A DNA stretch of 64,000 nucleotides from an uncultured bacterium (GTDB lineage: Bacteria; Omnitrophota; Omnitrophia; Omnitrophales; Aquincolibacteriaceae), in the NCBI GenBank assembly GCA_964482725.1, contig CAYZYT010000009.1, positions 19,832-83,831 on the forward strand, read 5' to 3'. The notes under the pieces were generated by a model that was not told the DNA's origin, did no database searches, and saw only the letters and a list, made by a program, of their open reading frames with translations. The translations under genes were made by a program, and so were the position numbers. Shown one piece after another: positions 22,901-48,000 of the stretch. The first letter of the stretch is position 1; every line of letters begins with the position of its first letter.

Positions 22901-22974
22901 GTCATTCTGAGGAGCGGAGTGACGAAGAATCTGTTGTGAGATCCTTCTCCCGCTACGGCGGGATCAGGATGATG
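22901..22974 (+). repeat. Nested palindromic element (GTCATTCTGAG family), intergenic copy between convergent genes
   Basis: GTCATTCTGAG..CGAAGAATCT-GTTGTG-AGATCCTTC..TCAGGATGATG. Confidence 0.7.
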
Positions 22975-22982
22975 CTATCGCA

Positions 22983-23174
22983 TCACTTGACGATCGTGCC
23001 GTCAAGCGTCTCGAAGATGATGGTGACGAGATTGTGGCACTTGGGACATTTGATCTGTTTGAAGGCCTGGATATTGTCGTGTTTGGGTCGGTACATGATC
23101 GAGAGGATTTTGGTAACGAAGGTGGCTTCACTGCCGGACCATTGACATGCGGGACAGTTATAAGCTGATTTCAT
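22983..23174 (-). CDS. Small zinc-ribbon protein (CPACQW...CPKCH)
   Basis: GAGGT RBS 5 nt upstream of internal Met22 of track ORF 22983..23237; two CxxC pairs. Confidence 0.45.
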   Translation of the reverse strand: MKSAYNCPACQWSGSEATFVTKILSIMYRPKHDNIQAFKQIKCPKCHNLVTIIFETLDGTIVK

Positions 23175-23389
23175 CGGTACCTCGTGTTGGTGTTTGATAA
23201 CCTTCGTTGTGTACGTGTTACAGTACGTAAAAATCATCGGCTTGGGCGCTTAAAAACTTTACCCCGCCGTCGCAAAAAGCCCATTTGTCTTGGCGGGGTT
23301 TCGCCGAAGCTGGAGATGCCACGGTCATAAGGCCGTGAAGCTCAAAATGTGTTTGTCTAAGCAGTTCCTCAAAGGATCCGGAGGGTGTC

Positions 23390-23731
23390 GTGAGAGTTCG
23401 AATGACCGGTCTTATGCTCGTAGGGATGTTTTGCCTCGTCTTGAGTCCTGCCTGTCTTGCGCAGGAGCAAGGGTATTTTGCTCAAATGGGGCAGGCCCTT
23501 AGCCGAGGTGTCAAGAATATCGTCAGTTTTCCCTTGGAGATTCCCGCGACGATCGCTAAACATGACAGGGAAGATGACGGGAACACCCGCGTTTTCCGGG
23601 ATGCTGCTGGCTTTGTGGATGGAACCTTTCGAGCTGTGACAAGGCTGGGCTGCGGTATTTGGGACGTTCTTTTTTCCGTGGTGCCCGGGCAGCAAGATGA
23701 GCTTCCGTTAACACCCAAGACTTTGTTTTAA
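23390..23731 (+). CDS. Small secreted protein, unknown function
   Basis: Signal peptide MRVRMTGLMLVGMFCLVLSPACLA; precedes paralog cluster. Confidence 0.5.
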   Translation: MRVRMTGLMLVGMFCLVLSPACLAQEQGYFAQMGQALSRGVKNIVSFPLEIPATIAKHDREDDGNTRVFRDAAGFVDGTFRAVTRLGCGIWDVLFSVVPGQQDELPLTPKTLF

Positions 23732-23783
23732 TTTGAAGATTTATCAGATTTTCTTAAAATCCGTTTGTGCCCGGGAGGGAAAG

Positions 23784-24716: not shown

Positions 24717-24895
24717 TTCTTTGCCAGGTTCTGCCGTTGGGCGGAGGGTATGTTCAATGTTTCGGCTCGAGTTTTTTTATCAGGCGTTCTGGAAAAAGAA
24801 AAGCAGGACTATGGCATCCCCTATGCCAGCAGGGAATGTAAACGAAGTTTCGATGGAACAGAATGCTATCCGCATGAGCGGGGAGGAGGCGTGGA

Positions 24896-25393
24896 ATGCT
24901 TAGGAATATTTTTTGGGGCAGCTTGATTGCTTTCGTCTTAACGATGGCGCCTTCCATTTACGCCGGCAAAGTGGAGTTGACCACCTACTATCCCGCGCCG
25001 ATGGGGGAATATCAGGATCTGAAGGCGACGAACAGTGTCGAGGTGGGAACGCCCGCTGTTCCCGGAACCTTCAAATTGGTCGACGGTCATCAGACCAATA
25101 AGTATGTTTTAACTTCGGACGCAAATGGTGTGGGCACTTGGCAGGCCAATAGCGCTTCCCCCGCGGGTTGGACATGCGGCGTGGTGTCGGCGACCCAACA
25201 CATGACCGCGGCTTATTCCAATTTTACAGTATGGTGTCCTGTTCCAAGAAAGCCTATTTCCGGCGGGATGAGGGGGTGGACTGAATCCCAGATCCTTATG
25301 CCGGTCCAATCGGGAAATCAGTTTGGCTATACGGCGACCAATGGTTCTGCTGTTCCGACTGATATTTCAGTCAACGTTCTTTGCTGCGAATAA
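24896..25393 (+). CDS. Secreted protein, GKVELTTYYPAP-N-terminus family member 2
   Basis: ...APSIYA|GKVELTTYYPAPMGEYQDL; divergent C-terminus. Confidence 0.65.
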   Translation: MLRNIFWGSLIAFVLTMAPSIYAGKVELTTYYPAPMGEYQDLKATNSVEVGTPAVPGTFKLVDGHQTNKYVLTSDANGVGTWQANSASPAGWTCGVVSATQHMTAAYSNFTVWCPVPRKPISGGMRGWTESQILMPVQSGNQFGYTATNGSAVPTDISVNVLCCE

Positions 25394-26665: not shown

Positions 26666-26769
26666 GTATTTCATATTTCGTCCAGCGCATATCGTATTTC
26701 GTATATCGAAAAAAATCGCGCGTAGATTTTTACGACATGCGAGGCACGAATAACGACATACGGTCTCCT

Positions 26770-29535
26770 ATGGCCAGTGGTTTTAAAGCATATCCTTTCG
26801 ACGAGATCGAAAAAAAATGGCAGACCTACTGGTCTGATCATCAAACCTTCCGTGCCCCTGACCCCGGAGAATCCGGCGGCGACAAGCCCAATTCTCCATC
26901 AGAAAATTCAAAGGTTAATTGGGCTAGCCCTGGCAACCTTCAATCAAAAGAAGATAGTCCCAATGCTATTCAATTTCCAAGCAGTGGAAATTGGGGCAAT
27001 CCTGACCACCATCATGGGAAAGAAAATAAAAGTCAGGATAGATGCCAGGGCAAGAAAAAATATTATGTCCTCGATATGTTCCCGTATCCTTCCGGCTCCG
27101 GCCTTCACGTCGGACATTTAGAAGGGTATACCGCCACCGACATTGTCAGCCGCTACAAACGGATGCGCGGGTTCAATGTCCTGCACCCGATGGGCTGGGA
27201 CGCGTTCGGACTTCCGGCCGAGCAATATGCCATCGAGACGGGCACGCATCCCCGCGAGACTACCCAAAAGAATATCGAGACCTTCAAGCGCCAGATCCAG
27301 CAGGTGGGTTTCAGTTATGATTGGGAACGCGAGATCGACACCACCGATCCTCTCTATTACCGCTGGACCCAATGGATCTTTATGAAACTTTTTGAAAGAG
27401 GGCTGGCCTACGAATCCGAGAAGCCGGTGTGGTGGTGCGACGGATGCAAGGCCGTCCTCGCGAACGAAGAAGTCGATGCTAACGGGACTTGTGAACGCAA
27501 AGGCCACAAGGACGTTTACCGCCGCCCGCTTCGCCAATGGATGCTCAAGATCACGGCCTACGCCGACCGTCTTTTAAAAGATCTGGACCTTCTGGATTGG
27601 TCGGAGCCCATCAAGGAAATGCAGCGCAACTGGATCGGGAAATCAACCGGGGCGGAGGTGACTTTCCCGATTGATTGGGAAAGTCATCCTGAGCGACCGG
27701 AGGGAGTCGAAGGATCTGCTCAAGCAAAGATTCTTCGCTGCGCTCAGAATGACGATCGATCCATCCGTGTTTTTACGACGCGGCCGGATACGCTTTTTGG
27801 CGCGACGTATATGGTTTTAGCTCCGGAGCACGCGATGGTGTCGAAGATCACGACGTCAGAGCAGAAGAAGGCCGTGGAAGCTTATGTGGCCACCGCGACG
27901 CACAAATCCGATCTGGATCGCACGGATCTTGCCAAAGAAAAAACCGGCGTTTTTACCGGGGCTTATGCGATCAACCCCGTGAATGATAAGAAGATCCCGG
28001 TGTGGATCGCGGATTATGTGCTGATGGGCTACGGGACGGGAGCCATCATGGCGGTACCCGCACACGATGAGCGGGATTTTGAGTTTTCGAAAAAGTTCAG
28101 ATTGCCGATTATTCCCGTCATTCTGAGGCCGAAGGCCGAAGAATCTAAAAACGTAGATCCTTCGCACCCTCGGGGTGCTCAGGATGACGGTGAAAGTGCC
28201 TTTGTCGGCGATGGGGTCAATATCAACTCTACGACGCCGGACGGTTCATTTTCGATTAACGGCCTTCCGACCCCGGAAGCGAAACAAAAGATCACGAAGT
28301 GGCTCGAAGAAAGGAAGATCGGCAAAGAAGCGGTCCAGTACAAGCTCCGGGATTGGCTCTTTAGCCGGCAACGATATTGGGGTGAGCCGATCCCAGTCGT
28401 GCACTGCGCGAAGTGCGGCCCCGTACTTATTCCTGAAAGCGAATTGCCGCTCATGCTTCCCGAGATGAAAGATTACACGCCGACCGGCAACGCGGAGCCG
28501 CCGCTTGCCAAGGCCGTCGACTGGCTGAAATGTAAATGCACCCAGTGCGGCGGTCCGGCCATGCGCGAAACGAACACCATGCCGCAGTGGGCGGGTTCGT
28601 GCTGGTATTATCTTCGCTATCTGGATCCGAAGAATACCAAAGCTCCGGTCGATCCGGAAAAAGAAAAATACTGGATGAATGTGGATCTCTATGTCGGTGG
28701 CGCGGAACACGCGGTGCTTCATTTACTCTATGCAAGGTTCTGGCATAAGGTGCTTTATGACATCGGGGTCGTTTCCACGCTGGAACCCTTCCAAAAACTT
28801 ACGAATCAGGGGATGATCCTCGGCGAAGACAGTCAGAAGATGTCCAAGTCGCGCGGCAATGTGGTGAATCCCGATGAGATGATCTCCCAATACGGCGCTG
28901 ATAGTCTTCGACTTTACGAAATGTTCATGGGGCCGCTGGAGATGACAAAGCCCTGGGCGAATTCCGGAGTGGAAGGGGTCTACCGGTTCCTCGGGAAAGT
29001 GTGGCGTCTCTTTATCGATAAGGATGACAAACTTCACCCTGTCATGGTTCAACGTGCGCCGAACGCTGCGGAGCTCAAGGCACTTCACAAGGCGATCAAA
29101 AAAGTAACGGAAGATCTGGAAGCGCTGCGATTTAATACGGCGATCTCGGCCCTGATGATCTTTATGAACGAAATAGCGGCCCATCAAGATCACTCGAAGG
29201 AAGTGATGGAGCAATTCCTTCTTCTTTTAGCGCCTCTTGCGCCTCACGTGGCGGAGGAATTATGGCAGCGCCTGGGTCATGCCAAGACGCTTGCTTATGA
29301 AAAATGGCCCGACTACGATAACCGATATCTTATCGAGGATCATGCGGAGATGGCGATCCTTGTGGGCGGTAAAGTACGCGCAAAAATGGTCGTTTCTCAT
29401 AATCAGAGCGAAGAGGTGATCCGACAAATGTGTTTGGAGCATCCCCGTGTGAAAGAACTGCTCGTGGGGAAGGTCGTCAAGAAGGTCATCATCGTTCCGG
29501 GTCGCACGGTCAACCTTGTGGTGGCGGATGCCTAG
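26770..29535 (+). CDS. leuS: Leucyl-tRNA synthetase carrying three in-frame insertions
   Basis: [27 protein letters not shown] (HIGH), KMSKS, editing and anticodon domains; start at [17 protein letters not shown] (ORF track 26737). Confidence 0.9.
26866..27057 (+). other. Low-GC in-frame insertion (~64 aa) in leuS between N-terminus and HIGH motif
   Basis: [65 protein letters not shown] absent from canonical LeuS; internal inverted AATTGGG / CCCAATT repeats. Confidence 0.5.
27683..27754 (+). repeat. Nested palindromic element (GTCATTCTGAG family), inverted orientation, in-frame inside leuS
   Basis: GTCATCCTGAGCG..CGAAGGATCT-loop-AGATTCTTCG..CGCTCAGAATGAC; encodes [28 protein letters not shown]. 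Confidence 0.7.
28116..28189 (+). repeat. Nested palindromic element (GTCATTCTGAG family), in-frame inside leuS
   Basis: CGTCATTCTGAGGCCGAAGGCCGAAGAATCTAAAAACGTAGATCCTTCGCACCCTCGGGGTGCTCAGGATGACG; encodes [25 protein letters not shown]. Confidence 0.8.
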
Positions 29536-29611: not shown

Positions 29612-31666
29612 ATGAAAAACGGCACTAAAGTCGAGATCAAGAATCAAAAGATCTTTGTCGGGAAAAAAGAAGTGCCGCTCATTTCCGGCGAAGTCCACTA
29701 CTGGCGCCTCAATCCTCATGCCTGGCGCGAAGCCCTCAAACGTGTCAAAGAGATGGGGCTTGAGATCGTCTCCACGTATGTTCCCTGGGATTTTCACGAA
29801 TACAAGCGCGGCCATTTTGATTTTACCGGAAAAACCGATCAGGCGCGCAACCTTAAGGCATTCCTCGATCTGACCCGCAAGGAAGGTTTCTGGCTCATCC
29901 TTCGTCCGGGTCCTTATATCTACAGCGAATGGCCGCGTGACGGCGTTCCCGATTATGCCTACAAGTATCACCGCCTGCATCCCAAGTTCCTCGGCTATGC
30001 CAAGGAATATTTAAAACAAGTCAGTAAGATCTTCAGGCCTTATCTTGCCTCGCGCAAGAACGGTCACATCCTGATGCTTCAGGCGGATAATGAGATCGAT
30101 CCCTGGCCGGATGTCTTCGGACAGCAATACGGTCTTTCCAAGAAGCCGGGACTTTTCCAGGATTTTATGCGCGATCTTTACAAGGATGATCTCCCGGCGC
30201 TGAACGAATCCTGGGGCACGCATTACGCGTCTTTCCGGGAAGCGTCGCCTTTTATCGCGACCATGCTGCCGGGCGAAAAAGGGCTTCCGCTTAAAGGGGA
30301 TAAAGAACTCAAACGGCATCTTGATTATTTCAAGTTCAAGTATGCGTATTCCCAGGAGGTCGCGAAGGGCAGCGTCCAAATGTATCGCGATCTGGGGGTC
30401 GATATCCCGATCTACCTGAACACCTATCCTTTCTTTTACGCGCACGATTGGGCCGCTTTTCAGGAAGTCTCGGATGCGGTGGGGCTGGACCTTTATCCCG
30501 CCAATGAGCTCAAAGAGGACGAGTATGAGCATCGCAAATTTTGCGACAAGATCCGTTATCTTTCGAGCGTTTCGAAACTTCCGTTCATCGCGGAATTCCA
30601 GTCAGGAATATGGCACGGCCGTCATTATGAAACCAGCGTGCTGACGCCCAATCACTACCGGATGATCTGTTTTTCCGCGTTCCTTGCCGGGGTTAAGGGG
30701 TGGAATTGGTACATGCTGGTGAATCGCGACAACTGGTACATGTCGCCGATCAACGAGTGGGGACGAGTGCGCGGGGAGCTGTATGATGTGTTCAAACAGA
30801 TCGTTTCCGTTTTTAAACAGCTCCGGCCGACCTCGCTTAAGAAAATGACCGAGATTGGCGTCACCTTCAATCCTCTCCAGTACGCGGCCCGGACGCTCAC
30901 GCACAACAGCCCCATTCTCGTCGCGCTTTATCAGGGGGATGTGGACTATGACATGTGCGATCCCCGGCGTAAGCTTCCCGGAAAAAAGGTGTTCTTTTAT
31001 TCCGGAAATCAGTGGCTCGGGAAAGCCGCGCATCAGAATCTTCGGAGGTATGTGGAAGAAGGCGGCACTTTGGTGGCCTTCCGTTCTTTCCCCCGCAAGG
31101 ACGATGATTTCATGCCGTACCAAGGGGTGGGCTTTGAAGAACCGGAGCGCACTCTTTTTGAGTTCAAACGGCAATTCAAAATAACTCTTGGTAAGGGTGC
31201 CGCGCCGATCGACGTCCATAGCTCCGTTTATGTTTTTAAGGCTGCGGGATGCGAAAAGATCCAGGCGGATCTTGGGACCTATGGAAAACAAACGGTCGGT
31301 TACATCAAAAAGATCGGCAAGGGAAAGATCATTCATCTGGGGATGGAGCCGGTCCCGGAGCTCGTGCTGGGAGTTTTGAACTATCTCAAAGCACCTCTGA
31401 TGAGCTATTCAGTCACGAGGGACGTCAAGACCGCGCTTTTTAACCGGGGCCGACGTTATTTTCTGGTGGTGGTCAATAACGGCAATGAAGATAAGAGCGC
31501 CACGATCTGTTTGCCGGCGCTGGATGGGATTCGTGGGAAGATGACCGCTCGTGACCTGTTGAGCGGAGAAAAAAAAGTTTATTTGAAAGAGAGCCGCCAT
31601 CCGTTCAATGTGCACGTTGCGCGCAAAGATGGCCGTGTTCTCGAGTTTACGTTCTCGCGTAGCTAA
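29612..31666 (+). CDS. Glycoside hydrolase family 35 beta-galactosidase-like
   Basis: ISGEVHYWRLNPHAWREALKRVKEMGLEIVSTYVPWDFHEY...GFWLILRPGPYIYSEWPRDGVP typical GH35 N-terminal TIM barrel. Confidence 0.75.
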   Translation: MKNGTKVEIKNQKIFVGKKEVPLISGEVHYWRLNPHAWREALKRVKEMGLEIVSTYVPWDFHEYKRGHFDFTGKTDQARNLKAFLDLTRKEGFWLILRPGPYIYSEWPRDGVPDYAYKYHRLHPKFLGYAKEYLKQVSKIFRPYLASRKNGHILMLQADNEIDPWPDVFGQQYGLSKKPGLFQDFMRDLYKDDLPALNESWGTHYASFREASPFIATMLPGEKGLPLKGDKELKRHLDYFKFKYAYSQEVAKGSVQMYRDLGVDIPIYLNTYPFFYAHDWAAFQEVSDAVGLDLYPANELKEDEYEHRKFCDKIRYLSSVSKLPFIAEFQSGIWHGRHYETSVLTPNHYRMICFSAFLAGVKGWNWYMLVNRDNWYMSPINEWGRVRGELYDVFKQIVSVFKQLRPTSLKKMTEIGVTFNPLQYAARTLTHNSPILVALYQGDVDYDMCDPRRKLPGKKVFFYSGNQWLGKAAHQNLRRYVEEGGTLVAFRSFPRKDDDFMPYQGVGFEEPERTLFEFKRQFKITLGKGAAPIDVHSSVYVFKAAGCEKIQADLGTYGKQTVGYIKKIGKGKIIHLGMEPVPELVLGVLNYLKAPLMSYSVTRDVKTALFNRGRRYFLVVVNNGNEDKSATICLPALDGIRGKMTARDLLSGEKKVYLKESRHPFNVHVARKDGRVLEFTFSRS

Positions 31667-34037: not shown

Positions 34038-36437
34038 ATGAAGCTTCCCTTTCTATGGCTCGCTCTTGGATTTTCAATCGGGATCATTGTGGAGAAGTAT
34101 TGGAAGGTCCCAGTCCTCTGGCTTGTTTACGGACTTTTTACGGGAATCGTTCTTTTGTGGTTTCTTCGAGGGCACCGTGCTTTTCTGCCTTTTCTCATCC
34201 TTTGCTTGGGATGTGCGGGAATTCTTTGGGCAGGCCTCGATGCTTTTGTCCCAGCGAATGCGGTTCAGAACTTTACAGGCCCTGAGCGCGTGATCCTCAG
34301 GGGAGTTGTGGATTCTCTCCCGGAGTTGAAGACGCGCGGGAAAAAGAAAACGGTCTCCTTGGTGCTTGCGGCACGATCGATCACCCGAGAGGAGAGCGGT
34401 TTACCTCAGAAACAAGGCGAGGCCCGCCTCTCAATAAATCCTTCTGATAGTGGGCGAGGTTCGCCTCCGGCGAACCGCCCGTTTTTGAAGGGCGGCCGCA
34501 GGAAATTCCATAGGGTGAGCGGCCAGGTGCAGGTTTTTTTGCTCCAAGCACCGAGCCTTCCGCAAGTGGGGGATGAGCTTCGACTTTTCGGAGAGTTGAG
34601 TGCGCCGAGGCAGGTCCTGAATCCCGGGGAATTCGATTACGGAAGTTTTTTAGCTCAAAAAAACATCGCTGCTCTTTTTCAGACGATCGGACCTAAGAGC
34701 GTTCGTGTCGTTCGCGAGGGTTCGAGATTTTCTCCGGCCCGGATCATCGCGGAAACCCGGCGAAGTCTGGCCGCGTTGATCGACAAGCTTTATGTTGCTT
34801 CCGAAGCCGCGATCCTGAAAGCCCTGGTGCTTGGGTTGAGGAGCGATGTGGCGCCGGAGGTTCGGGACCAGTTCATGAAGACCGGGACGATCCACTTGCT
34901 TGCGATCAGCGGACTGAATATCACGATGATCGCAGGGACTTTTTATTTGATGTTCCTCTTTTCGGGACTGGGGTATCGAAAGACATCGTTTTTGACGATC
35001 CTGATCGTGGCCCTTTACGTCGGGCTTGCGGGGGCCGGGATCCCGGTCCAGCGCGCGGGGTATGGGTCCGTGTTGGTGCTTGCCGGAGTTCTTATCGGCC
35101 GGCCCGCGAACCTTTTGAACGCACTCTGCTTTGCTTTTTTTGTGATCCTTCTCTGGAATCCGAAGAGCCTTTGGAATATCGGATTTCAGCTTTCCTTTCT
35201 TTCGGTTTTCTCGCTCATGCTGGTCCTGCCGCTTTTATCGCGTTTTAGTGCCTGGACCTTGTCTTTGGGTTCAAGCCTTGCGGTTCTTTTCGGGACTTTT
35301 CCGGTCGTTCTTTATCATTTTAATATTTTCTCTCCGGTTAGCATTCTTGCGAATCTCGCCGCTATCCCGATTTTTGATGCGGCCCTTTTCAGTACTCTTT
35401 TCGCACTGATCCTGAGTGGGGTCCCGTTCGTGAACATCCTTTTAATCAAGGTGTCTTCTTGGATACTTGCGATCGGACTTGTCTGGGTGAAATATCTCTC
35501 CACGTGGCGCTGGGGTTACTGGTTTTTGGAACGGCCGTCTCTAGGCCGGCTTATAGCCTATTACCTCAGCGTGGCGATGATCTTGATCTTTTATAAAAAA
35601 GTTTTCCGAGGAAAGCGTTTTCTGATGACGGGTTGGGTCTGTTGCTGGATCGTGCTCGCCGTCTCTTTTTTTATCGGTCCCGGGGGGAAAGGATTCGAGC
35701 TCACGATGCTTGCCAGTGGCAGGAACCAGATTGTGCACGCGCGTTTCACGAGTGGGGTTCACTGGCTTCTGAACGCCGGAAGAAGTTTTCCCTCCGACCA
35801 GGGCGAGTGGCTGATCGCGCCTTTTCTGAGGAATCGTGGGATTCAGCGACTGGAGGGGATTCTGCTTGCGGATCTCTCCAAAAAAAATACGGGGGGGCTC
35901 GCAGCGGTCATGCGGGATTTTCCGGTCCGACATCTTCTTTATCCTGCAGAAGCTCCGTACGGGCCGGAGGAGTTTTATAAAAGCCTCCGAAAACTGGGCC
36001 GTAAGGCGAAGACATTCCAGCGGGGGGATGCGGTGTTGATGGCGGGGGAAAAAATAACCATGCTCGCCCGGTCACCCAAAGGCGGTGCGTTTCTGATCGA
36101 GTCAGGCCCTTGGCATATTCTTCTCATCTCACGATGGGATAGCGAGATCTTTACGCAGCTTCTCAGCATTGATGAGCCAGAAATCCATGCGGCTTTTTTA
36201 CCGGCGCCAGGGCCGGCGGGGATTCCGGGCGAGTTTCAAGATTGGCTCGATGGAGCCCGGCCCCGGCTTATTGTTGTTCCGGACCCGTCGCAGGAAACGG
36301 CTCCGTATCTGGCCTCCCGCGGCATTCCGTATCTTGATCTGAAAAGTACCGGCGCATTAGGTTTCAGAAAGAACGGTTCTCGGCTTGAGTTGGTGTCGTT
36401 CTCGCGAGGGCCGTTGGGCGTTTTCTCGTATCCTTAA
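34038..36437 (+). CDS. comEC: ComEC/Rec2-family DNA internalization channel protein
   Basis: DQFMKTGTIHLLAISGLNITMIAG competence domain motif, many TM helices, ~800 aa. Confidence 0.75.
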   Translation: MKLPFLWLALGFSIGIIVEKYWKVPVLWLVYGLFTGIVLLWFLRGHRAFLPFLILCLGCAGILWAGLDAFVPANAVQNFTGPERVILRGVVDSLPELKTRGKKKTVSLVLAARSITREESGLPQKQGEARLSINPSDSGRGSPPANRPFLKGGRRKFHRVSGQVQVFLLQAPSLPQVGDELRLFGELSAPRQVLNPGEFDYGSFLAQKNIAALFQTIGPKSVRVVREGSRFSPARIIAETRRSLAALIDKLYVASEAAILKALVLGLRSDVAPEVRDQFMKTGTIHLLAISGLNITMIAGTFYLMFLFSGLGYRKTSFLTILIVALYVGLAGAGIPVQRAGYGSVLVLAGVLIGRPANLLNALCFAFFVILLWNPKSLWNIGFQLSFLSVFSLMLVLPLLSRFSAWTLSLGSSLAVLFGTFPVVLYHFNIFSPVSILANLAAIPIFDAALFSTLFALILSGVPFVNILLIKVSSWILAIGLVWVKYLSTWRWGYWFLERPSLGRLIAYYLSVAMILIFYKKVFRGKRFLMTGWVCCWIVLAVSFFIGPGGKGFELTMLASGRNQIVHARFTSGVHWLLNAGRSFPSDQGEWLIAPFLRNRGIQRLEGILLADLSKKNTGGLAAVMRDFPVRHLLYPAEAPYGPEEFYKSLRKLGRKAKTFQRGDAVLMAGEKITMLARSPKGGAFLIESGPWHILLISRWDSEIFTQLLSIDEPEIHAAFLPAPGPAGIPGEFQDWLDGARPRLIVVPDPSQETAPYLASRGIPYLDLKSTGALGFRKNGSRLELVSFSRGPLGVFSYP

Positions 36438-36531: not shown

Positions 36532-39500
36532 ATGAAGATTTCGAAGGTTTTGGCCTTCATTTTTATATTGCTCCTCCCGCACACTTTTGCCTCTGCGGAT
36601 TGGGTTTGGTCTCCTGAACAGGGGAAATTCATCAATACCGAATCCGAGACTCAAAGTGGTGCCGATGACATCTTCGATAATGCCCTCGATCTTTACAAAG
36701 AAAAGAAGCTCGATAAAGCGACCGAGCAATTCAAGATAGTTCTCAAGCAGTACCCCAAATCCCGCGTGGCTCCTGAATCTCAATACCGGATCGGTACGAT
36801 TTTTGAAGAAACCGGTGATTATGTCGAGGCCCACAAGGCCTATCAGGATTTGATCAAATCCTATCCCCAGAGCGAGCGTTTTGAAGAGGTGATCGAGCGC
36901 GAGTATCAGATCGGGACCATGTTCCTTTCCGGAAAAAAAGGGAAGCTTTTGGGGCTCGATATCCGGCCGTCTTTGCCCTTGGCCATCGAAGTGTTCCAGA
37001 AGATCGTGACGGCGGCGCCTTATGGGGCCTTCGGGGATAAAGCCCAGTTCAGTCTCGGGGTGGCTTATCAAAAGTCCGGGCAGCTTGATAATTCCGTGGA
37101 GGCTTTCCAGGCCTTGATCGATCAGTACCCTCAAAGTAAATTGATCCAGCAGGCCCGTTTGCAGATGGCGGAAGTTTCGTATGCGAAAACCGGAGGTCAG
37201 TCGCGCGATCAGAGCGCGCTTGATGAAGCGGCCCGCCAGGCGCAGGGCTATCTCAAACGATATCCGGGCTCTGAAGAATCTCAGCAAGCCGAAAAGATCA
37301 GCCGGGAAGTGGATGAGCTGAATGCTGAGAAGAACTATCGGATCGGTCTTTATTACGAAAAGGACAATTACCTCGCAAGCGCGCTCATCTATTACTTTGA
37401 TACCGCAAAGCGCTATCCGAATACAAATTGGGGACGGAAGGCGGCGGAAAAACTTCATTCGTTGCAAGAGCCCGTGAAATATCTGAATTCCAAGGCTGAG
37501 GAGTTGAAGAAAGAATTAGCGGCCCTGGAGTCAAAATATCAGGCGTTGGGGGCGGGTCAGAAAGCCGAGCGAAAGCAGCTTGAAAAAGAGATCGCTCAAA
37601 TGAAAAAACGCATTAAGGCGATCGATAAAAACAAGACCGAGAGCTTGGGGCGTCGCAAACAGGACCTGAAGCGTCGCGAACGTGAATTGAATGAAAAGTT
37701 CAAGGAACTCGAACGCAAGAAGAAGCGTTTTAAGAATAATACGTCCCCGGACTTTCAAAAAGCCATTGATCGTTGGCAGGCGTCTCTTGAGGCGGAGCGG
37801 GATGCTTTGGCCGAGGAGAAGGGCCGCCTTGAATCCTGGCGTTCTGAGTTGGGTGTTCCGGATGAAAAGTTCTATGAGAATTTGATCCCCGGCAACCTGA
37901 TCCCGGATAATCTGATCCCGTTCATGGGCAAGTCCGAAACTCCGCTTCAAAAGATCCAGCAGCTGGATGAAAAGGAGCTTTACAAGCTTTCCCGGAAGAA
38001 AAAGGAGCTGCTCGAGAAAAAGGAAAAACTCTACAAACGGTACAGTGAGCTGCAGTCTTTGTTGATACCGGAGCGTTCGGAAAGCGGTTTGAAGCGGAAG
38101 CGTTTGCGCGGTGTTGCAGCCAAGGATCCGAGTAAGCCCATCGACCCGAAACTCTTAGCCCGGGAAAAAGACATCGAGGCTTTGGAGGCTAAGTTGGACG
38201 CGAAAATGGTGCTCTATGAAAAATATTTTGGTAAATCCGCCGAGCAGGAGCTTGAAGCCATGATCGAGAGTCGATCCGCTCCGAAGGCGGCTTTTAATCC
38301 GTTCACGGTCGAGACCGGCGATCTTCCCCAAAAAAGCATCGAAGAATTACTCGAACTGAAAATGCATCTTAGCGAGCAGGTGAAGGCTCAGGAGGACATT
38401 GTTGGAACGCTGACCACCGCTTTTGATAAGGACCTGGCTTTGAAGGAGCAGCAAGCCCTGATGAAGTCCCTTGAAGATGACAAGAAAGTGGATGTGCGTA
38501 AACTCCGCAAGAATATTAAAGGCGTGGAAAAAGAACTCCGTAAATGTTATCAGGATATTCAAGATCGTCAGAAGAATAAGAAGAAGCTTCTTGAGGAACT
38601 GGATGAAACGCTGAATGGGCAAGAGGGCAAGGGGAAGGTTCTGAAAACCCTCGCTAAGCCGATCACAGGCCCCGCCTATCTTGCTAAGGCATTTATTTTC
38701 GGGCTTCCGAACGAAGATGTTACTTTGACGGATGCTGCGAAGAAACCGGGTTCTGACGCAAAGGCCAAAAAACTTCAGGAGGGGATTGAGCTGGAAAGTC
38801 TTATGATCCAGGCGCAGGCGCAGGAGATCAACAAGCTTGAAAAAGATCTTGAGATCCTGAACGCGAAGGCCTCCCTCGCCGGGGGCATGAAATTCAGGAG
38901 TTCCTTCGTCAAGGTCCCGTATGCTTTTATCGAAGAAGCGGTTCAAAGCGCGCAACGAGTGGTCCCCCGAAAGAGTCGAAAGGATGTGCTTCTGAATCGC
39001 TTGGACAACCAGACCCGAGAGTTGGAGCGCTTTAAAGCTGAATTGGAGGCGACGGAGGCTATGATTAAGGAAAAGACTCCCCCCCCGCCTCCGCCCGTCG
39101 ATGTTGCGGTGTCAGGAACGGATGCAGAGAAAAAAGAAAAAACCGAACCTGCCCCGGATGAGAGACAGCTACGGGACGATGCGATGAGTCTGCGGGAGCA
39201 ACTCGAGATCGCCTACAGTATCTATGCACAGGAACAAGGCGTCGCGCTCGGGGACGAGGGGAAGAAGGAAAGTCCTAAAGATGCCGAAGGCGCCCGGAGA
39301 TACAAAGAATACAAGGAAGCGGGGGTTGAACTCTCCGGAGTGATCGATCAAGAACTCGCGATCGAACAGCAGGAGAGAGAGATCCTTGAAAAACGGATCC
39401 TGGAGGCTGACAAAGTGATACCGACCGTGACTTCCAAAGCGATGCAGCAGGATCTCGAGACCGAAAAGGATCGCATCGGGCAGCGTCTTTCGGACTTGGC

Positions 39501-39552
39501 CACGCGGCATGATTTTCTTTCCAAGGAAAAAGAACGTTTCAGCGCTAAGTGA
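36532..39552 (+). CDS. BamD/YfiO-like TPR lipoprotein N-domain fused to ~750-aa K/E-rich coiled coil
   Basis: Signal peptide; YPKSRVAPESQYRIGTIFEETGDYVEAHKAYQDLIKSYPQSERFEEVIEREYQIG; long heptad-rich tail; tandem NLIPGNLIPDNLIP. Confidence 0.6.
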   Translation: MKISKVLAFIFILLLPHTFASADWVWSPEQGKFINTESETQSGADDIFDNALDLYKEKKLDKATEQFKIVLKQYPKSRVAPESQYRIGTIFEETGDYVEAHKAYQDLIKSYPQSERFEEVIEREYQIGTMFLSGKKGKLLGLDIRPSLPLAIEVFQKIVTAAPYGAFGDKAQFSLGVAYQKSGQLDNSVEAFQALIDQYPQSKLIQQARLQMAEVSYAKTGGQSRDQSALDEAARQAQGYLKRYPGSEESQQAEKISREVDELNAEKNYRIGLYYEKDNYLASALIYYFDTAKRYPNTNWGRKAAEKLHSLQEPVKYLNSKAEELKKELAALESKYQALGAGQKAERKQLEKEIAQMKKRIKAIDKNKTESLGRRKQDLKRRERELNEKFKELERKKKRFKNNTSPDFQKAIDRWQASLEAERDALAEEKGRLESWRSELGVPDEKFYENLIPGNLIPDNLIPFMGKSETPLQKIQQLDEKELYKLSRKKKELLEKKEKLYKRYSELQSLLIPERSESGLKRKRLRGVAAKDPSKPIDPKLLAREKDIEALEAKLDAKMVLYEKYFGKSAEQELEAMIESRSAPKAAFNPFTVETGDLPQKSIEELLELKMHLSEQVKAQEDIVGTLTTAFDKDLALKEQQALMKSLEDDKKVDVRKLRKNIKGVEKELRKCYQDIQDRQKNKKKLLEELDETLNGQEGKGKVLKTLAKPITGPAYLAKAFIFGLPNEDVTLTDAAKKPGSDAKAKKLQEGIELESLMIQAQAQEINKLEKDLEILNAKASLAGGMKFRSSFVKVPYAFIEEAVQSAQRVVPRKSRKDVLLNRLDNQTRELERFKAELEATEAMIKEKTPPPPPPVDVAVSGTDAEKKEKTEPAPDERQLRDDAMSLREQLEIAYSIYAQEQGVALGDEGKKESPKDAEGARRYKEYKEAGVELSGVIDQELAIEQQEREILEKRILEADKVIPTVTSKAMQQDLETEKDRIGQRLSDLATRHDFLSKEKERFSAK

Positions 39553-41484: not shown

Positions 41485-43071
41485 ATGAAAGCTGCCGCGG
41501 TGGTGGCGGTGATGACCCTGATCGGGCGCATTTTGGGGCTTATTCGCGATATTGTGAGCGCTAAAAGCTTCGGGACGAATTGGCACTACGACGCCTTCCT
41601 CTATGCGTTCATGCTTCCCAACCTTTTTCGCCGCATCGTCGGCGAAGGCGGGCTTACAAGCGCTTTTATTCCGGTTTATAACGAGATCGGAGAAAAACAG
41701 GGGCGTGCGGAAGCGTTCCGCTTCGCGAATATCACGATCAGTTTTCTAAGCCTTGCTCTTTTTGCCTTCATTCTGGGGGTGGAAGGAGTTTTGAATATTC
41801 TCTTAAAGATCGGTTTTCAGTCCCAGACGGTGATGTTGACCCTGGAACTGTCGCGCATTCTCTTTCCTTATCTCTGGTTCCTGTCCCTTTACGCTCTCGG
41901 GATGGGGATCTTGAACAGCCACCGTCACTTTCTTGCGCCCGCCATGGGTCCCGCGATCCTCGATCTTGTGTGGATCGGCGCGGTGCTCTGGGTGCCCTCC
42001 TGGGTGGGACATGATTATCTGGCGAAAATAAGCTGGCTTTCCTATGTGATCCTTTTGGGCGGGTTCCTGCATGTGGCGGTGGAGCTTCCGCCGCTTCGCA
42101 AGCTCGGTTTCAAATTCCACTGGGTCTGGAATACCGGTTATGAAGGTCTTAAGAAGACCTGGAAACTTTTGCTCCCGGTGGTGCTGAGTTTTGCGGTCGT
42201 TCAGATCAATATTACCGTGGATATGACGCTCGGGCTGGCGATTGGACCGGGTGCGAATTCAAGTCTTTGGTATGGGAACCGGCTCATGCAGTTCCCGCTC
42301 GGTGTGTTTGCGCTCGCGATGGGGACCGCTCTTTTGCCGATGCTCGCGCAGCAGATCGCGCGGGGCGAGAAAGAGGCGTCTCGGAAAACACTTTCGTTTG
42401 CGCTCAGGAGTATTTTCTTTATCATCATTCCTTCCTCGGTCGGGTTGATTGTGCTTCGGGAACCGATCATCCGGATGCTTTTTGAGCGGGGCGAATTTGA
42501 TGCCGTTTCGACCGCGCGCAGTTCTGCCGTTTTGCTGGGGTACACGATCGGACTTTTTGCTTTTGCGGGACAAAAGATCATGAATAGCGGTTACTACGCG
42601 GCGCATGATTCAAAAACGCCGATGATGACGTCTGTGATTTCACTCCTCTCGAATATTGTTTTTAGCGTGATTTTGATGATTCCGTTCAAGGAAGCGGGGC
42701 TTGCGCTGGGGACCTCGATCTCCGGTATTCTCCAATTGGGGCAGTTGGTTTATTTCTATCCTAAAAAAGTGGGGGAGTTCCCGTTCCGCGAGGTCGGAGC
42801 TTCTTTCCTGCGCATCCTGCTGGCATCCCTTGTGATGGGCGTGATAGGTCACTATGGTTTAAAGCTTTTTCAGTTTTGGCTTCCGGGGCAAAGCACGAAG
42901 ATGCAACTGCTTCAGGTGTTTGGCAGCATCACCCTTGCCACGGTGGCTTATCTGGGACTGTGCCTCGCGTGCCATGTTCCTGAAGCGAAGGAAGCCTGGG
43001 CCTGGTTCCGGAGAAAGAAAAAGCCCGCGGCCGATCCTCTGGAAGTGGAAAAGTTGATCGATGGTGCGTAA
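41485..43071 (+). CDS. murJ: Lipid II flippase MurJ (MviN)
   Basis: MKAAAVVAVMTLIGRILGLIRDIVSAKSFGTNWHYDAFLYAFMLPNLFRRIVGEGGLTSAFIPVY. Confidence 0.85.
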   Translation: MKAAAVVAVMTLIGRILGLIRDIVSAKSFGTNWHYDAFLYAFMLPNLFRRIVGEGGLTSAFIPVYNEIGEKQGRAEAFRFANITISFLSLALFAFILGVEGVLNILLKIGFQSQTVMLTLELSRILFPYLWFLSLYALGMGILNSHRHFLAPAMGPAILDLVWIGAVLWVPSWVGHDYLAKISWLSYVILLGGFLHVAVELPPLRKLGFKFHWVWNTGYEGLKKTWKLLLPVVLSFAVVQINITVDMTLGLAIGPGANSSLWYGNRLMQFPLGVFALAMGTALLPMLAQQIARGEKEASRKTLSFALRSIFFIIIPSSVGLIVLREPIIRMLFERGEFDAVSTARSSAVLLGYTIGLFAFAGQKIMNSGYYAAHDSKTPMMTSVISLLSNIVFSVILMIPFKEAGLALGTSISGILQLGQLVYFYPKKVGEFPFREVGASFLRILLASLVMGVIGHYGLKLFQFWLPGQSTKMQLLQVFGSITLATVAYLGLCLACHVPEAKEAWAWFRRKKKPAADPLEVEKLIDGA

Positions 43072-44584
43072 AAAAAAGGATGGAGGATGGAGGATGGAGG
43101 ATGGCGTCGAGCGGAAAGCCAAAACGCCCTCCGCCCTCCGCCCTCCGTCCCCCGAACCGCTGAAATTGCTTCGTCCTTTCGTGGAAAGAATGCCGCTCAC
43201 TTCCGGCATCTACCTCATGAAAGACGCCCGGGGAACGATCCTCTACATCGGCAAGGCGAAATCTCTCCGGAAAAGAGTGCGGTCATATTTTAAGATTCCT
43301 GCCCCGATCCCCAAGATCACGATCCTGATGGGAAAAGTGAGGGCGATCGACCACATCGATACCCCGACGGAAGTTGATGCGCTGCTTCTTGAAGCTCATC
43401 TGATCCGCAAGCACCAGCCCCGCTACAATCAGGATCTGAAAGATGATAAGAGCTTTCCGCTTTTTAAGATCACACGCGAGAAATTCCCGAAGCTTTCGGT
43501 CACGCGACAAAAAGGGGACGGCAAGGCGGATTATTACGGTCCCTATACGGACGCGAAACTTTTGCGACAGGCCTTGAATTTGATACAGGCGCTTTTTCCG
43601 ATCAGAAAATGCCAAGCGTTGCCTAAAACGGCATGCCTCTATCATCATATTGGACAGTGCCTTGCCCCGTGTATCAAGCCGGAAGTGAAACCGGAATACG
43701 ACCGCCTGATCCATGAGGTGAAGCGTTTCCTGGGAGGTGGCAAAAAAAGTTTTGTGCAGTATCTCAATGACAGAATGGAGCGGGCGAGCCAGGCGTTGCA
43801 ATTTGAGGACGCGCAATTTTTTAAGGAACAGATCGACGCGCTTTCCAAGCTCCGGAAAAAGCGTTTTCTTCCCAAAAATCCGGGGCAAGGGATTTCTCTT
43901 TCGGCGACGATCGAGCTCAAGCAACGACTCAAGCTGGAGAGGATCCCTGAACGTATCGTTTGTTTCGATGTCTCGAATGTGCAGGGCGATCAGGCGGTTG
44001 CTTCCAAGGTGAGTTTTTACCGGGAGCTGCCCGACAAGTTCGGGTACCGCCGCTACAAGATCCGGGGAGTTTCCGGGATCAACGACTATGCCATGATCGC
44101 CGAAGCTTTGACGCGTATGCTTTGCGGTATCAAGGAAGGCCGGGAAGAATTTATACCGGATCTTATTATGATCGATGGCGGGAGAGGGCATCTCAATACT
44201 GCGGCCAGGGTCCTCGCCCGGGAGGGGATGACCTCGATCGATATTGTTTCCATCGCCAAACAGTTCGAGTGGATCCATTCTCCGAAGTTCCTGGGGCCGC
44301 TTGTCCTGGCCTCGGATTCACCCGCGCTTTATCTCCTAAAAAAAGTGCGGGATGAGGCCCACCGGTTCGCCATCACCTATCACAGGAAGCTCAAGTCAAA
44401 GGCCCTGCAGCGATCGGCCCTAGATGATATCCCGGGGATTGGCGGGAAGCTTAAACGTATCTTGCTCGGTCATTTTAATTCCGTCGAGGAGATCCGGAGC
44501 GCCAGCATGGAAAAGCTTCGTGCCGCTCCGGGTATTGATCCGAAAACGGCTAAGGCGGTTCATACCTACTTTTCACCTCGTTAG
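43061..44584 (+). CDS. uvrC: Excinuclease ABC subunit C (UvrC), short form; start overlaps murJ stop; 5' end contains heptamer repeats
   Basis: GIY-YIG: SGIYLMKDARGTILYIGKAKSLRKRVRSYF; Cys cluster CQALPKTACLYHHIGQCLAPC; C-terminal HhH. Confidence 0.8.
   Translation: MVRKKKDGGWRMEDGVERKAKTPSALRPPSPEPLKLLRPFVERMPLTSGIYLMKDARGTILYIGKAKSLRKRVRSYFKIPAPIPKITILMGKVRAIDHIDTPTEVDALLLEAHLIRKHQPRYNQDLKDDKSFPLFKITREKFPKLSVTRQKGDGKADYYGPYTDAKLLRQALNLIQALFPIRKCQALPKTACLYHHIGQCLAPCIKPEVKPEYDRLIHEVKRFLGGGKKSFVQYLNDRMERASQALQFEDAQFFKEQIDALSKLRKKRFLPKNPGQGISLSATIELKQRLKLERIPERIVCFDVSNVQGDQAVASKVSFYRELPDKFGYRRYKIRGVSGINDYAMIAEALTRMLCGIKEGREEFIPDLIMIDGGRGHLNTAARVLAREGMTSIDIVSIAKQFEWIHSPKFLGPLVLASDSPALYLLKKVRDEAHRFAITYHRKLKSKALQRSALDDIPGIGGKLKRILLGHFNSVEEIRSASMEKLRAAPGIDPKTAKAVHTYFSPR
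43077..43152 (+). repeat. Heptamer-tandem element: (GGATGGA)x3.5 - spacer - (GCCCTCC)x3
   Basis: Seen directly; in-frame at uvrC 5' end (encodes KDGGWRMEDG...PSALRPPSPEP). Confidence 0.7.
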
Positions 44585-44807
44585 TCTCTTGTTTTAAGTT
44601 GTCTGTCGAGAATAAATCGCTGCATTGGCGCTATGCGCTGCTATGAATCGATAGTTGCATTTTAGGCGATTTATAACATTTTAAGCCGCCTCAAGGTCCG
44701 ATTTCCTGCCGAAATAAAATCGTTAAATTTCACAAAAAAAGAGGCTGTGCCCTTGCGGATGTCCGATTATGTGTTATCTTTTCATAAGACTTTAGAAATC
44801 AAAGAAT

Positions 44808-45029
44808 GGCCGTTCCAATACTCATCAATCCCAGCTTCCGAAAAGATGAAATTGGGGCGGCCATAACGACCATTGTTGTAAAAAAATAGCACGTTAAGGC
44901 CGTCCCAATACCATGCAATCGAAGCGTAGCTGAGATTGGGGCGGTCTTGACTACCGTTCAGTAAAATAAATCTGAAGTCAAGGCCGTCCCGATACATATC
45001 GATTTCACGGAGTTGAAATCGGGGCGGTC
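44808..45029 (+). repeat. Tandem array of three ~50-nt hairpin units (GGCCGTyCCrAT-N24-31-ATyGGGGCGGyC) with ~35-nt palindromic spacers
   Basis: 12-bp stems perfect only when G.U pairs allowed (plus-strand RNA); copy 3 carries compensatory CCCGAT/ATCGGG. Confidence 0.7.
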
Positions 45030-45074
45030 GTAATTACCATTAGTTAAAAGAAATAAAAATTACGGCCGAGGCAA

Positions 45075-48000
45075 ATGATCCAAAAAACATCTGCACACAA
45101 GACGCTCATTCCACGCTTTTTCCTCAAGGCGATCAGTCTGTTTACGGTAGTCGTTTTCCTCGGAACTTCCTTTCCGTCCCAGACTCTAGCGCAGATGCCT
45201 TCTACTTCCAATGTTACGGGAGGGATTGACGCCAGTCTTCTTGCCTCGGCCTCCGCCACAAGCGGAAAAGTGCAGGAGATCGTCATCCCTTCCGAACTTG
45301 GAACGATAAGCGAAGCTTATCGCGGGGAACGGGGAACGATGAACGTGGAACGTGGGGCCGAAAACGTTAGCCGTTCCCCGTTAGCCGTTCCCCGGCACGG
45401 CCGTATGGTCGTGCTGATCCAAGACGCTCACGCGGTTCCCGATGCCCAGAGGTCCGTTGAAAAACTGATCGAACATCTCCAGAAAGAATACGGCGTCACG
45501 ACCGTAGCGGTGGAAGGCGCGGAAGGGAAGCTGGACCCCACGCTTTTCCGCCTGTTTCCTGATGCGGAAAAAAGAAAAAGCATTTTTGAAGATTATCTTG
45601 CGAGCGGAGAACTTTCCGGCGCGGCGGCGGCAAGCGTGCTTTCGCCTTACACGGCGGACTATGTCGGGATGGAAGACTGGACGCTTTATCAGGACGGGGT
45701 AGCGGCGTTTCTGGCCGGCCTTGGAAAGCAGGTCGATCTCAAATCTCACATCTCAACTCTCAAATCGGAGCTGCAAAGGCTTAAAACAAAATACTATTCA
45801 GAGGAGGCGCTGGCATTTGATGCCAAACTGGGCGCATGGAATGAAAAACAGAATAATTTGACGGAGCTTTTGAGCTATCTTGCTAAGTTCGTCGAGGTCA
45901 ACGCGCAACGCACAACGCTCAACGTATTATTTGAGGCGTTGGCGCAAGAGAGGAAGGCTGCCCCGAAGCTTGAATCGGAAGTAAAACAGCTTGCCAAGTA
46001 TGTCCACGAGACTGCGCCGAGTGCGAAACTGAACGGACTGGTCCAGGATTACCGGACCGGGCGCTTATCCCTCGCGGCTTTTGCGTATGAGCTTACCGAA
46101 CTCATCTCTGGCAACAAGTCCGTCATTCTGAGCCCGAAGGGCGAAGAATCTCAAAAAAGAGATCCTTCGGTTTTGCCTCAGGATGACGTGAAGATTGTTG
46201 TTTCGGCTGAACTCCGATCGATCATCCAAAACCACGAAAAACTCGTTCAGATGAAAGGGCCTGCATTTATCAAAGAGCTGGAGGCTTTCGTGGAAGACGT
46301 CCGGGCAAAACTTCATACGACACCGGAAGCGAAGGCGGTTGCCGTGCTGGCCAAGCAGTTGCAGCTGCTGGAGAAGCTCTCAACGTTTGAATTGTCGCGG
46401 AGCGAATGGGAAGAACTACGAGCGGGGAACGGGGAACGGGGAACGTGGAACGGGGATGAAAGTATCGATATCTCCCAAAAAAGGATCCTCGATCTTTATC
46501 ACGCACCGCTTGTGGCCGATTTTCTTTCTTTTTATGAAATAGCAATTAAACGCGAAGCCGTTTTTAAGGAGAAGCTTTTTGACCTGTTAGGCGTTAACGT
46601 TTCCCGTTTCCCGTTACCCGCTCCCTACGCCACAAATTCTGTCGCATTTGTGGCGGGCGGCTTCCATACAGGCGGCCTCGCGGCGAAACTCAAGGAACAG
46701 GATATTCCCTATGTCGTCATCTCGCCGGCGATGAAAGAAGTGCCGCAGGACAATCGCTACTTTGAACATATGCAGGGCAAGGTGTCGTGGCGTTCTTACT
46801 TTAAACCGCATAGCGGACGGATTGATCTATTTGATGCCTTTAACCGTGCTACGACAGAAAAACTTTTAGGGGGTAGGGGACAGGGGATAGGCGATAGAAA
46901 ACTAAACCCTAAACCCTATACGCTATACGCTAAGGAATGGCGCGATTCGATCATCCGCAATCTTGCCGCCTCCGGCCGTGTTGCGGAACATGCAAAATAC
47001 ACACATTTCATTGACGAGCAAGCCGCCGGAAATTCCGAAGAGTTTCAGGGGCTCAAACAAACCTGGACCGCGAAACTTGAGCGATTCATCGAAAAACTGC
47101 AGTTCCTTGGTAAGAACAATCAGATCAACGAAGCGAATGTGGCGAAGTTGCTTTCTCAGCCAGCCAACCAGACGCCTTATGCGGTTCCCCTGGTTCCGGG
47201 TGCGACCATTCCCGAAAGCTTTTCAGGAGGTGAACGTGCAACCCACAGGGGCTGGACAGAAAGCGTTCTGACGGACAACGCGCAGCGAGAAATACGAAAA
47301 CCTGAAGCGTTGACCCCTGACCGTAAAACGTTGCCTGCGGCCCAAGGCCGACGTTCCGAGGTGAGAATCTCAGGGGCGAGTCGAGCTGGGGAGAATCTCG
47401 CCCATGATGTGCGTCCGCAAGTTTCGATTGTCATTGAAACGACGCTCAGGGATGAGGTTTTTTTGAACCAACTCGAGAAATATTTTTCCTCGGAGAAGAG
47501 TTCGGAGATCAACAAACAAGTGATCATCGCCGTCGACGGGCGCAGTCAAGCGCTTCAACGCGAACGTTTTGAAAAGCTCAAACGACTGATCAGAGGATTT
47601 GATCCCGAGAAATCAGTTTCCCATGTCCAGTTCGTGCTCGTTCCCGGAACGGGGGCCGTGGGACAGGGGATCCGGAACGGGATTGCCGTTTCGACCGGGG
47701 ACGTCGTTGTTTTGGCAGATGATCGCGCGCCGCTAGACGACGAGATCTATCTTGCTTTGGCGTCACCCGTTCTTCAGAAAAAATCAGAGGCAGTCTATGA
47801 TGCGTCCGGTCTTTACTCGGCGATCAAAACGCGGACGATGAAAGAAGTGCGGTGGAGCAAACGCGGGCCTTTCAGAGACGCAGAGATCAAAGCCAAATTT
47901 GAGCGTCTTGCTTATAAAGCTCAAGTATCTTCCGTTTTATCGTCCGAAGAGCAGGCGCGTATTTCTGCTCGCCCAGGTGTCTCAATTTTCGAGCGCGTTC

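Follow-up and report, generated by a model that had tools for sequence, protein, structure and literature searches.

The window analysed here, 64 kb of one contig from an uncultured Omnitrophota bacterium, contains four copies of a short palindromic repeat, one intergenic and three embedded in-frame in coding sequences (Table 1). Two of the genic copies lie in leuS, the gene for the essential leucyl-tRNA synthetase, the product of which (P0001) matched Candidatus Omnitrophota proteins, and the third lies in the second of the giant genes. A first-pass annotation of the DNA had placed four copies at these same places, and its coordinates have here been trimmed to cores of 66-72 nt. A profile built from the copies in other genomes recovered exactly these four (E 9e-11 to 5e-15) and no fifth copy or half-copy within the 64 kb. 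The 11-mer of the outer arm, GTCATYCTGAG, occurs seven times exactly and once with a single mismatch, as compared to a mean of 1.77 occurrences in shuffled sequences when one mismatch was allowed, and none of 100 shuffles reached eight.

Copy 1 is located between the stop codon of the YdjC gene and that of a convergent small gene; its right outer arm is degenerate (GATGAT) and no terminator-like T-run is found there. Copy 2, which is inverted relative to the others and encodes 24 residues, occupies the loop immediately ahead of TTRPDT, the motif with which the CP1 editing domain of LeuS opens (site 1). In the same domain, copy 3 encodes a 24-residue peptide in a variable loop that follows the HDxRDxEF motif, read here as HDERDFEF (site 2). 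The HIGH-type motif (HVGH) and the KMSKS motif of LeuS are intact. The second giant gene carries copy 4 close to its N-terminus, in a linker that is variable. All three genic copies lie in uninterrupted frames and encode the peptides previously given for them, and the claim that they preserve the reading frame was confirmed.

Table 1. Copies of the palindromic element, their host genes and neighboring genes in the 64 kb window.
Feature	Position	Strand	Description
Copy 1	22901-22972	+	72 nt, intergenic, nhmmer E 8.8e-11
Copy 2	27683-27753	- (inverted)	71 nt, in-frame in leuS, site 1
Copy 3	28117-28188	+	72 nt, in-frame in leuS, site 2
Copy 4	46122-46187	+	66 nt, in-frame in the second giant gene; encodes VILSPKGEESQKRDPSVLPQDD
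leuS	26737-29535	+	932-codon open reading frame; annotated product P0001, 921 aa; carries copies 2 and 3
Giant gene hosting copy 4	from ~45195, runs off the window		glycosyltransferase and inositol-monophosphatase domains (Pfam)
YdjC	22117-22890		Pfam
GH35/42 glycosidase	29612-31666		Pfam
ComEC	34038-36437		Pfam
TPR/YfiO protein	36532-39552		Pfam
UvrC	43061-44584		Pfam

The copies are insertions

All four copies are insertions, and an empty orthologous site is known for each of them. Close LeuS orthologs are typically 819 aa long and 84-90% identical to the protein encoded here, and they contain neither segment. The spacer between the orthologs of YdjC and the convergent gene is 20-30 nt long and empty in two related stretches (L001 and L003), and copy 4 is not present in the giant-gene orthologs P0121-P0126 nor in the L265 DNA. 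The first-pass annotation had estimated that 23-25 residues were added to LeuS by each copy. This holds for site 1, where the net gain is 24 residues, but not for site 2, where the element replaces about 12 loop residues of the orthologs and the net gain is about 15 rather than 25.

Both LeuS sites correspond to gaps relative to the Thermus LeuS sequence and are indel hot spots among the orthologs. An AlphaFold model of LeuS inferred from an 18-sequence alignment had a mean pLDDT (predicted local distance difference test) score of 43, and gap positions relative to solved LeuS sequences were used instead. The alignment bore out the suggestion that the segments are absent from close orthologs, and they may be exposed at the protein surface.

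Copies 2 and 3 are also present, with the same flanks, in a stretch that is 93-94% identical to the window (L240), and copy 3 is identical in the two. Likewise, the independent assemblies L001 and L002 agree with each other. These agreements rule out an assembly artefact. Homologous segments at the same positions in other orthologs had been named beforehand as evidence that would speak against insertion, and such segments were indeed found, at LeuS site 1 in L001 and in the giant gene of L197. They are, however, not ancestral protein sequence, but the same element with sharp borders, and closer relatives are without them.

Architecture of the element

The element consists of two inverted hairpin units arranged head to head and separated by a spacer of 4-25 nt. 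Each unit has the form YGTC-ATYCT-GA-(mini-hairpin)-GA-AGRAT-CT, in which the mini-hairpin is closed by G/C and is commonly a C-GNA-G triloop, and a canonical copy reads YGTCATTCTGAG-CGNAG-CGAAGAATCT-spacer-AGATCCTTCG-CTNCG-CTCAGGATGACR. When the four copies in the window are oriented alike, 39 columns are invariant, namely GTCATTCTGAG, CGAAGAATCT, AGATCCTTC and TCAGGATGA.

Each arm forms a hairpin of its own, in which the ATTCT:AGAAT stem leads to a tandem G.A/A.G loop and then to the G-C-closed mini-hairpin. The units differ at one stem position, which is T...A in the left unit and usually C...G in the right unit, such that the left arm has ATTCT...AGAAT and the right arm, on the other strand, ATCCT...AGGAT. 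Pairing of the two arms with each other into a single long hairpin yields one G.T wobble and one A.C mismatch on either strand. The two asymmetric positions were Watson-Crick paired within the arm in 65 of 69 copies, with the right arm unconstrained by the search, and complemented the opposite arm in 13 of the 69. In 52 of these 65 copies, the paired bases at the asymmetric positions were not the same in the right unit as in the left. What had been described as a tolerance for G.U pairs in the stems thus turned out to be two fixed differences between the arms, each of which is Watson-Crick paired inside its own arm.

We also examined the covariation within the arm hairpins. In an alignment of 50 distinct right-arm units, 98% of the cells were paired and four of the seven pairs changed on both sides (22 cells). 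These values were attained in none of 500 shuffles, and sliding the 3' partner abolished the pairing. The closing pair of the right arm (n = 128) was G-C in 87 copies, A-T in 30, C-G in 6 and T-A in one, and the A-T and C-G pairs would mispair in a long hairpin. The conserved structure is the hairpin of the single unit. The loops are mostly GAA, GCA, GTA and GGA, with GNA triloops prevailing in both arms; the triloops form part of GCGNAGC or CCGAAGG, two DNA mini-hairpins of exceptional stability (PMC13037366).

The middle segments of the copies in the window are lengthened, and each variable segment forms its own mini-hairpin, such as GGCC-GAA-GGCC and CACCC-TCG-GGGTG in copy 3. These copies fold into a four-way junction both as RNA and as DNA, and the junction is complete in copy 3. 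The z-scores for RNA folding were -3.2 to -8.3. A variable but compensatory middle tier had been proposed in the first-pass annotation, together with a check by folding and covariation. The arm hairpins were supported by this check but the compensatory tier was not: in the window and in most of the family the arms are not complementary in this part, where each segment makes a mini-hairpin. The inner segments of the two arms were identical in only 10 of 128 copies, and compensation between them is therefore not the conserved feature.

Distribution of the family across bacteria

Species-representative genomes were searched with a pattern consisting of the exact left arm, the inner arm and half of the right inner arm. 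The core of 30-40 nt was found in at least 120 genome stretches from at least 20 bacterial phyla, and at least 120 stretches from metagenomes were matched by a narrower variant of the pattern. Although the pattern did not include the right outer arm, this arm was exact in 105 of the 127 genome copies listed. Among the matches listed were members of the Nitrospirota, Omnitrophota, Planctomycetota, Bacillota, Bacteroidota, Patescibacteria, Chloroflexota, Acidobacteriota, Elusimicrobiota, Armatimonadota, Gastranaerophilales, Actinomycetota, Synergistota, Zixibacteria and Bdellovibrionota, as well as Alpha-, Beta- and Gammaproteobacteria, including Coxiellaceae and metagenome-assembled genomes (MAGs) of Rickettsiales. 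Cultured bacteria also carry the element, for example Sedimentibacter saalensis DSM 13558, and further carriers are OZ251550.1, OY970226.1 and Lachnospiraceae AC2029. The lack of further copies genome-wide had been named at the outset as speaking against the reading; copies are plentiful in other genomes. The suggestion that the repeat behaves like a Rickettsia palindromic element (RPE) in an unrelated genome holds in its core, with the amendment that the element is not peculiar to this genome.

The original pattern also matched 21 viral contigs. One IMG/VR contig (L131, 8546-8980) ends in a tandem array of five full elements, with A-rich linkers of about 12 nt between them. Searches of plasmid and phage collections at E 1e-3 gave no match. 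At E 10 the plasmids gave weak matches, most of them without an annotated feature at the position and three of them listing a protein-coding gene.

Copies inside genes

The family is mostly intergenic across genomes. In the genome set, 19% of the copies were located in open frames of at least 200 codons as compared to 74% of random 70-mers, and in the metagenome set 14% were internal to long frames as compared to 51% of the controls. Element lengths were evenly distributed modulo 3 and there was no preference for orientation relative to the host open reading frame (ORF), with 11 copies in the same and 11 in the opposite direction. Genic copies used only the two frames that are free of stop codons. 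This restriction, together with the avoidance of genes, makes the copies in coding sequences look like the survivors of a filter. As judged from the sequences, the survivors would be those that keep the frame, avoid the stop-containing frame and lie in tolerant surface loops or linkers, and they would then be translated as 22-24 extra residues. Such a filter would explain why the same loops have been used repeatedly in LeuS, in valyl-tRNA synthetase (ValRS) and in the giant protein.

In a ValRS of Saccharibacteria, a member of the family is inserted in-frame immediately before the TTRPET motif, which is the structural equivalent of LeuS site 1, and in an isoleucyl-tRNA synthetase (IleRS) of Rickettsiales another member is inserted in-frame near the C-terminus. 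The element marks loops in which class I aminoacyl-tRNA synthetases can accommodate about 24 additional residues. The same IleRS gene of Rickettsiales (L019, ~290-340) contains a second coding palindrome (SPSPLGRGRGEGE, CTCCCCTCGGGAGAGGG) about 20 codons upstream of the element. In MAGs, the element inflates and disrupts gene calls and yields spurious "hypothetical proteins".

Repeated use of the same sites

Several different inserts were found at LeuS sites 1 and 2 in the Omnitrophota orthologs, with at least five different occupants at site 1. Many of these inserts end in ...NDK or ...DDK peptides, as would be encoded by an ATGAC terminus. Site 1 in L001 and L002 (P0015) contains the same element as the window, with a sequence identity of 84% to the window copy and 67-77% in the flanks. 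The spacer of this copy has diverged between the window and L001, and other orthologous pairs from the metagenomes likewise differ in their spacers.

The codon position of copy 4 is occupied by a dRS3-like sister element instead in L266, which is a closer relative in this region. L197/L204 is a relative that is distant though syntenic, with neighboring genes 70-72% and a giant gene 65% identical to those of the window; at this codon it has a copy that matches copy 4 at 65 of 66 nt (98.5%), spacer and both variable segments included. The flanks of this copy (450 nt) are only 56-59% identical to those in the window, and the sequences abutting the element are unrelated. Either the whole element is under unusual selection at this position or it has recently entered the same site in both lineages, and the comparison is compatible with both. 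A similar situation has been described in Rickettsia, where different groups among RPE-4/-6/-7 occupy the same loci and where the choice between a hot spot and a common origin was left unresolved (PMC3767692).

Mode of spread and alternative explanations

Target-site duplications of 2-9 nt were found at the permutation level only, as examined at four boundary offsets in 133 copies. The palindrome reaches exactly one base past GTCAT, as indicated by a complementary Y...R pair in 95 of the 133 copies, and no flank preference was seen beyond this paired base. Copies of one genome have spacer sequences in common, indicating that the whole element, including the spacer, is the unit that is copied. 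Tandem arrays of the element occur, and copies have been gained at sites that are empty in relatives. No gene family, whether of transposases, Y1-transposase-like proteins or others, recurred within 3 kb of the copies in the genome scan when ORFs were clustered at two stringencies, and none of the nine ORFs from the window that were scanned against Pfam matched a transposase family.

This profile resembles that of elements processed as folded single strands, such as repetitive extragenic palindromes (REPs), the REPINs, in which two REPs are combined, and the ends of IS200/IS605. We consider it probable, though by no means certain, that the repeat belongs with the REP/REPIN/RPE kind of mobile DNA, as a non-autonomous element that is moved in trans as a folded single strand and filtered for reading frame in genes. 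The element probably moves as single-stranded DNA with its arms folded, and an enzyme provided in trans would recognise the hairpin plus the YGTC tag and act in the manner of the HUH tyrosine transposases. These transposases cut REPs and the ends of IS200/IS605.

Several points weigh against such a mobile element. Nearest-neighbor energies for DNA slightly favor the four-way form (-18.4 kcal/mol) over the two arms taken separately (-5.5 and -9.2 kcal/mol), and the arm fold is hence not the predicted ground state. The near-identity of copy 4 to the copy in L197 is not accounted for by random insertion followed by neutral decay, and the translation of the inserts is read from open frames in the sequence. 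REPs are normally lineage-specific, and a single core in at least 20 phyla is unlike the vertically inherited systems of REPs and REP-associated tyrosine transposases (RAYTs). Finally, no mobilising enzyme was found and the single-strand, HUH-like step is proposed by analogy alone; the published class of CGTC-tagged REPs is likewise without a known transposase (PMC3733652).

Some of these points would be accommodated by a pan-bacterial hairpin element that spreads horizontally, targets specific sites instead of inserting at random and re-enters them in a homing-like manner, being mobilised not by its own transposase but by a conserved host enzyme working on folded single-stranded DNA. Such an element would account for the core being identical in at least 20 phyla and for the missing linked gene, the three independent occupants of the copy-4 codon (in the window, in L197/L204 and the sister element in L266), the five or more occupants of LeuS site 1 and the equivalent site in ValRS of another phylum. 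We nevertheless regard this scenario as doubtful. The family is well suited to separating targeting from selection in the reuse of sites.

A second alternative is that the element is a selected functional signal in RNA or DNA, such as a stabiliser of mRNA 3' ends, an RNase III site, a protein-binding site or a ribozyme, and that the coding copies are incidental. Extreme conservation of the core across phyla, the location of copy 1 between convergent genes, a stable RNA fold and the conservation of copy 4 far above its own flanks are all as expected for such a signal. We think it unlikely, since there is no Rfam family at E values up to 10 and no T-run terminator, orientation is not biased relative to the host ORFs, with both orientations represented in leuS, presence and absence differ among close relatives, and the spacers diverge freely in other orthologous pairs.

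We also considered a classical MITE (miniature inverted-repeat transposable element), that is, a deletion derivative of an insertion sequence with a DDE transposase that moves by cut-and-paste with the 11-nt outer arms as its terminal inverted repeats. The outer arms do look like terminal inverted repeats, and TG...CA ends, as in IS3- and Tn7-type elements, are seen in about 70% of the copies once the flanking T and A are counted in. However, duplications of 2-9 nt are missing from the target sites at all four offsets, no transposase gene recurs nearby and long elements with the same ends were not seen, while the conservation runs through the inner arms and the covariation indicates hairpins within the arms. 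The lack of duplications and of a linked gene, combined with the covariation, disfavors a DDE-type MITE, which we consider very unlikely.

Even less plausible is that the genic copies remain untranslated through ribosome bypass or removal from the mRNA, in analogy with the "byp" hairpin elements of yeast mitochondria. Very stable hairpins within coding sequence would suit such a mechanism, but a skipped sequence would not need to preserve the frame, and every genic copy examined (the three in the window and those in L001, L197, L104 and L019) keeps the frame and avoids the one that contains stop codons; nor was any essential gene seen to be split by a copy. That the segments are ancestral or recruited sequence of LeuS and the giant protein, with the DNA palindrome being secondary, is hardly tenable at all despite the homologous peptides at the same position in some orthologs (P0015, L197), since the nearest orthologs are without the segments, the same nucleotide element is found in intergenic regions and in unrelated genes of many phyla, and its borders in the DNA are sharp; this reading is already contradicted.

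Other repeats in the window

A third in-frame insert in leuS, of about 171 nt, is located near the N-terminus at 26886-27057. It is a different, double-hairpin repeat with CCCAAT...ATTGGG and a second inverted repeat, and its second hairpin itself holds another, nested copy of this kind at 26956-27041. The insert is wholly absent from L240, in spite of the 93-94% identity of this stretch to the window, and L003 has only the outer part. Relatives of the CCCAAT-type repeat are located at 19431-19516 and at 44844-45078, the latter consisting of three tandem copies upstream of the second giant gene. The part of leuS that encodes the editing domain (27640-28300) resembles more distant orthologs (P0015, P0024, P0049) rather than the orthologs of 819 aa that are otherwise closest, which suggests that this domain is mosaic or recombinant.

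The second giant gene contains an in-frame palindrome of GGGGAACG-type repeats at 45323-45394, which encodes RGERGTMNVERGAENVSRSPLAVPR, and a related repeat is located 1.1 kb downstream at 46408-46455. This palindrome would be the third kind of coding hairpin repeat in the window. Two window-specific segments of about 100 nt together are located at 23214-23345, in the spacer after the convergent small gene, and are absent from L001 and L003; the larger of these has a hairpin, CCCCGCC...GGCGGGG. Two near-perfect inverted repeats of 18 and 16 nt (12725-12762 and 12880-12915) are located directly downstream of a tRNA gene (12649-12723) and may be terminators.

Relation to known elements

No publication describing this sequence was found when the literature was searched with DNA words and the encoded peptides, the matches being unrelated primers at most, and the sequence family, its breadth and its arm-hairpin architecture appear to be undescribed. 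The insertion of a palindromic repeat in-frame in essential genes is, by itself, a behaviour that is already known. Using Rfam 15, which includes the self-cleaving ribozymes, only three tRNAs were obtained for the window at the gathering score, and a search over copy 3 with E values up to 10 gave nothing meaningful. A hammerhead-like reading, based on a loose likeness of the left arm to the stem II region of a minimal hammerhead, was dropped as there was no Rfam match.

The palindrome-associated elements derived from IS200/IS605 have imperfect hairpin ends and lack target duplications, as is the case here. These insert 3' of a fixed tetra- or pentanucleotide, whereas only the Y...R base pair was seen in the present family. 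As in the REPINs, two inverted units and a short spacer replicate together without target duplication (Bertels and Rainey; Nunvar et al., PMC2817692), and the arms are expected to form hairpins in single-stranded DNA (PMC2817692). The REPINs, however, are GTAG-tagged (GT[AG]G), flank a single-copy RAYT gene, are vertically inherited and are lineage-specific, whereas the tag here is YGTC. The element is not a member of the REPIN/RAYT system, given that the tag differs and that no Y1-transposase-like family recurred within 3 kb of the copies in the genome scan.

More features are shared with the CGTC-tagged REPs, which include dRS3 of Neisseria and RPE-4 and RPE-6 of Rickettsia (Di Nocera, De Gregorio and Rocco 2013, PMC3733652). 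These have a terminal CGTC tag, often TGTC and with CCTC also admitted, a stem that begins with AT, and short hairpin units with a short tail; they are chiefly head-to-head dimers, often heterodimers, and have no associated transposase gene; intragenic copies occur, and different copies are found at the same site in orthologs. In the family described here, the base preceding GTC was T in 73% and C in 17% of 105 copies, with CGTC at three of the four left ends in the window, and all copies found were head-to-head pairs. The AT...AT at the start of the stem is invariant, and the stem comprises 9 positions, of which positions 6-7 are the tandem G.A/A.G and not Watson-Crick pairs, as compared to 8-9 bp in the class. 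The families differ in that a tandem G.A internal loop is found here instead of 8-9 continuous pairs, a GNA triloop or longer mini-hairpin instead of a loop of 4-5 nt, and a CT instead of a CCA tail. They also differ in range, with lineage-specific sequences in 5 phyla in the published class and a near-identical core in at least 20 phyla here. Sister units that resemble dRS3 (TGTCATTCCCGCGAAGGCGGGAATCC) are located in the same genomes as the element in L266 (~1900-2000), L004 and L119. The two units of the pair in L266 differ at the same stem position as the units here (ATTCC versus ATCCC).

The RPEs are likewise inserted in-frame in housekeeping genes, including those for aminoacyl-tRNA synthetases and uvrC, and different groups of them are found at one locus among orthologs (PMC3767692). 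They are described as being 100-150 bp long and confined to Rickettsia and Wolbachia (PMC3767692), unlike the present element. In-frame hairpin repeats in essential enzymes are thus not confined to Rickettsia, as members of one family are found in Omnitrophota, Saccharibacteria and Rickettsiales. RPE-4/-6/-7, as compared here by way of their published description, have an ATGAC motif at the ends of the palindrome (PMC3767692). The likeness to the RPEs may exceed mere analogy, in that the terminal GTCAT/ATGAC tag is shared. With its invariant core, the covariation in its arms and its GNA mini-hairpins, the family is well suited to finding the mobilising enzyme of the CGTC/ATGAC class.

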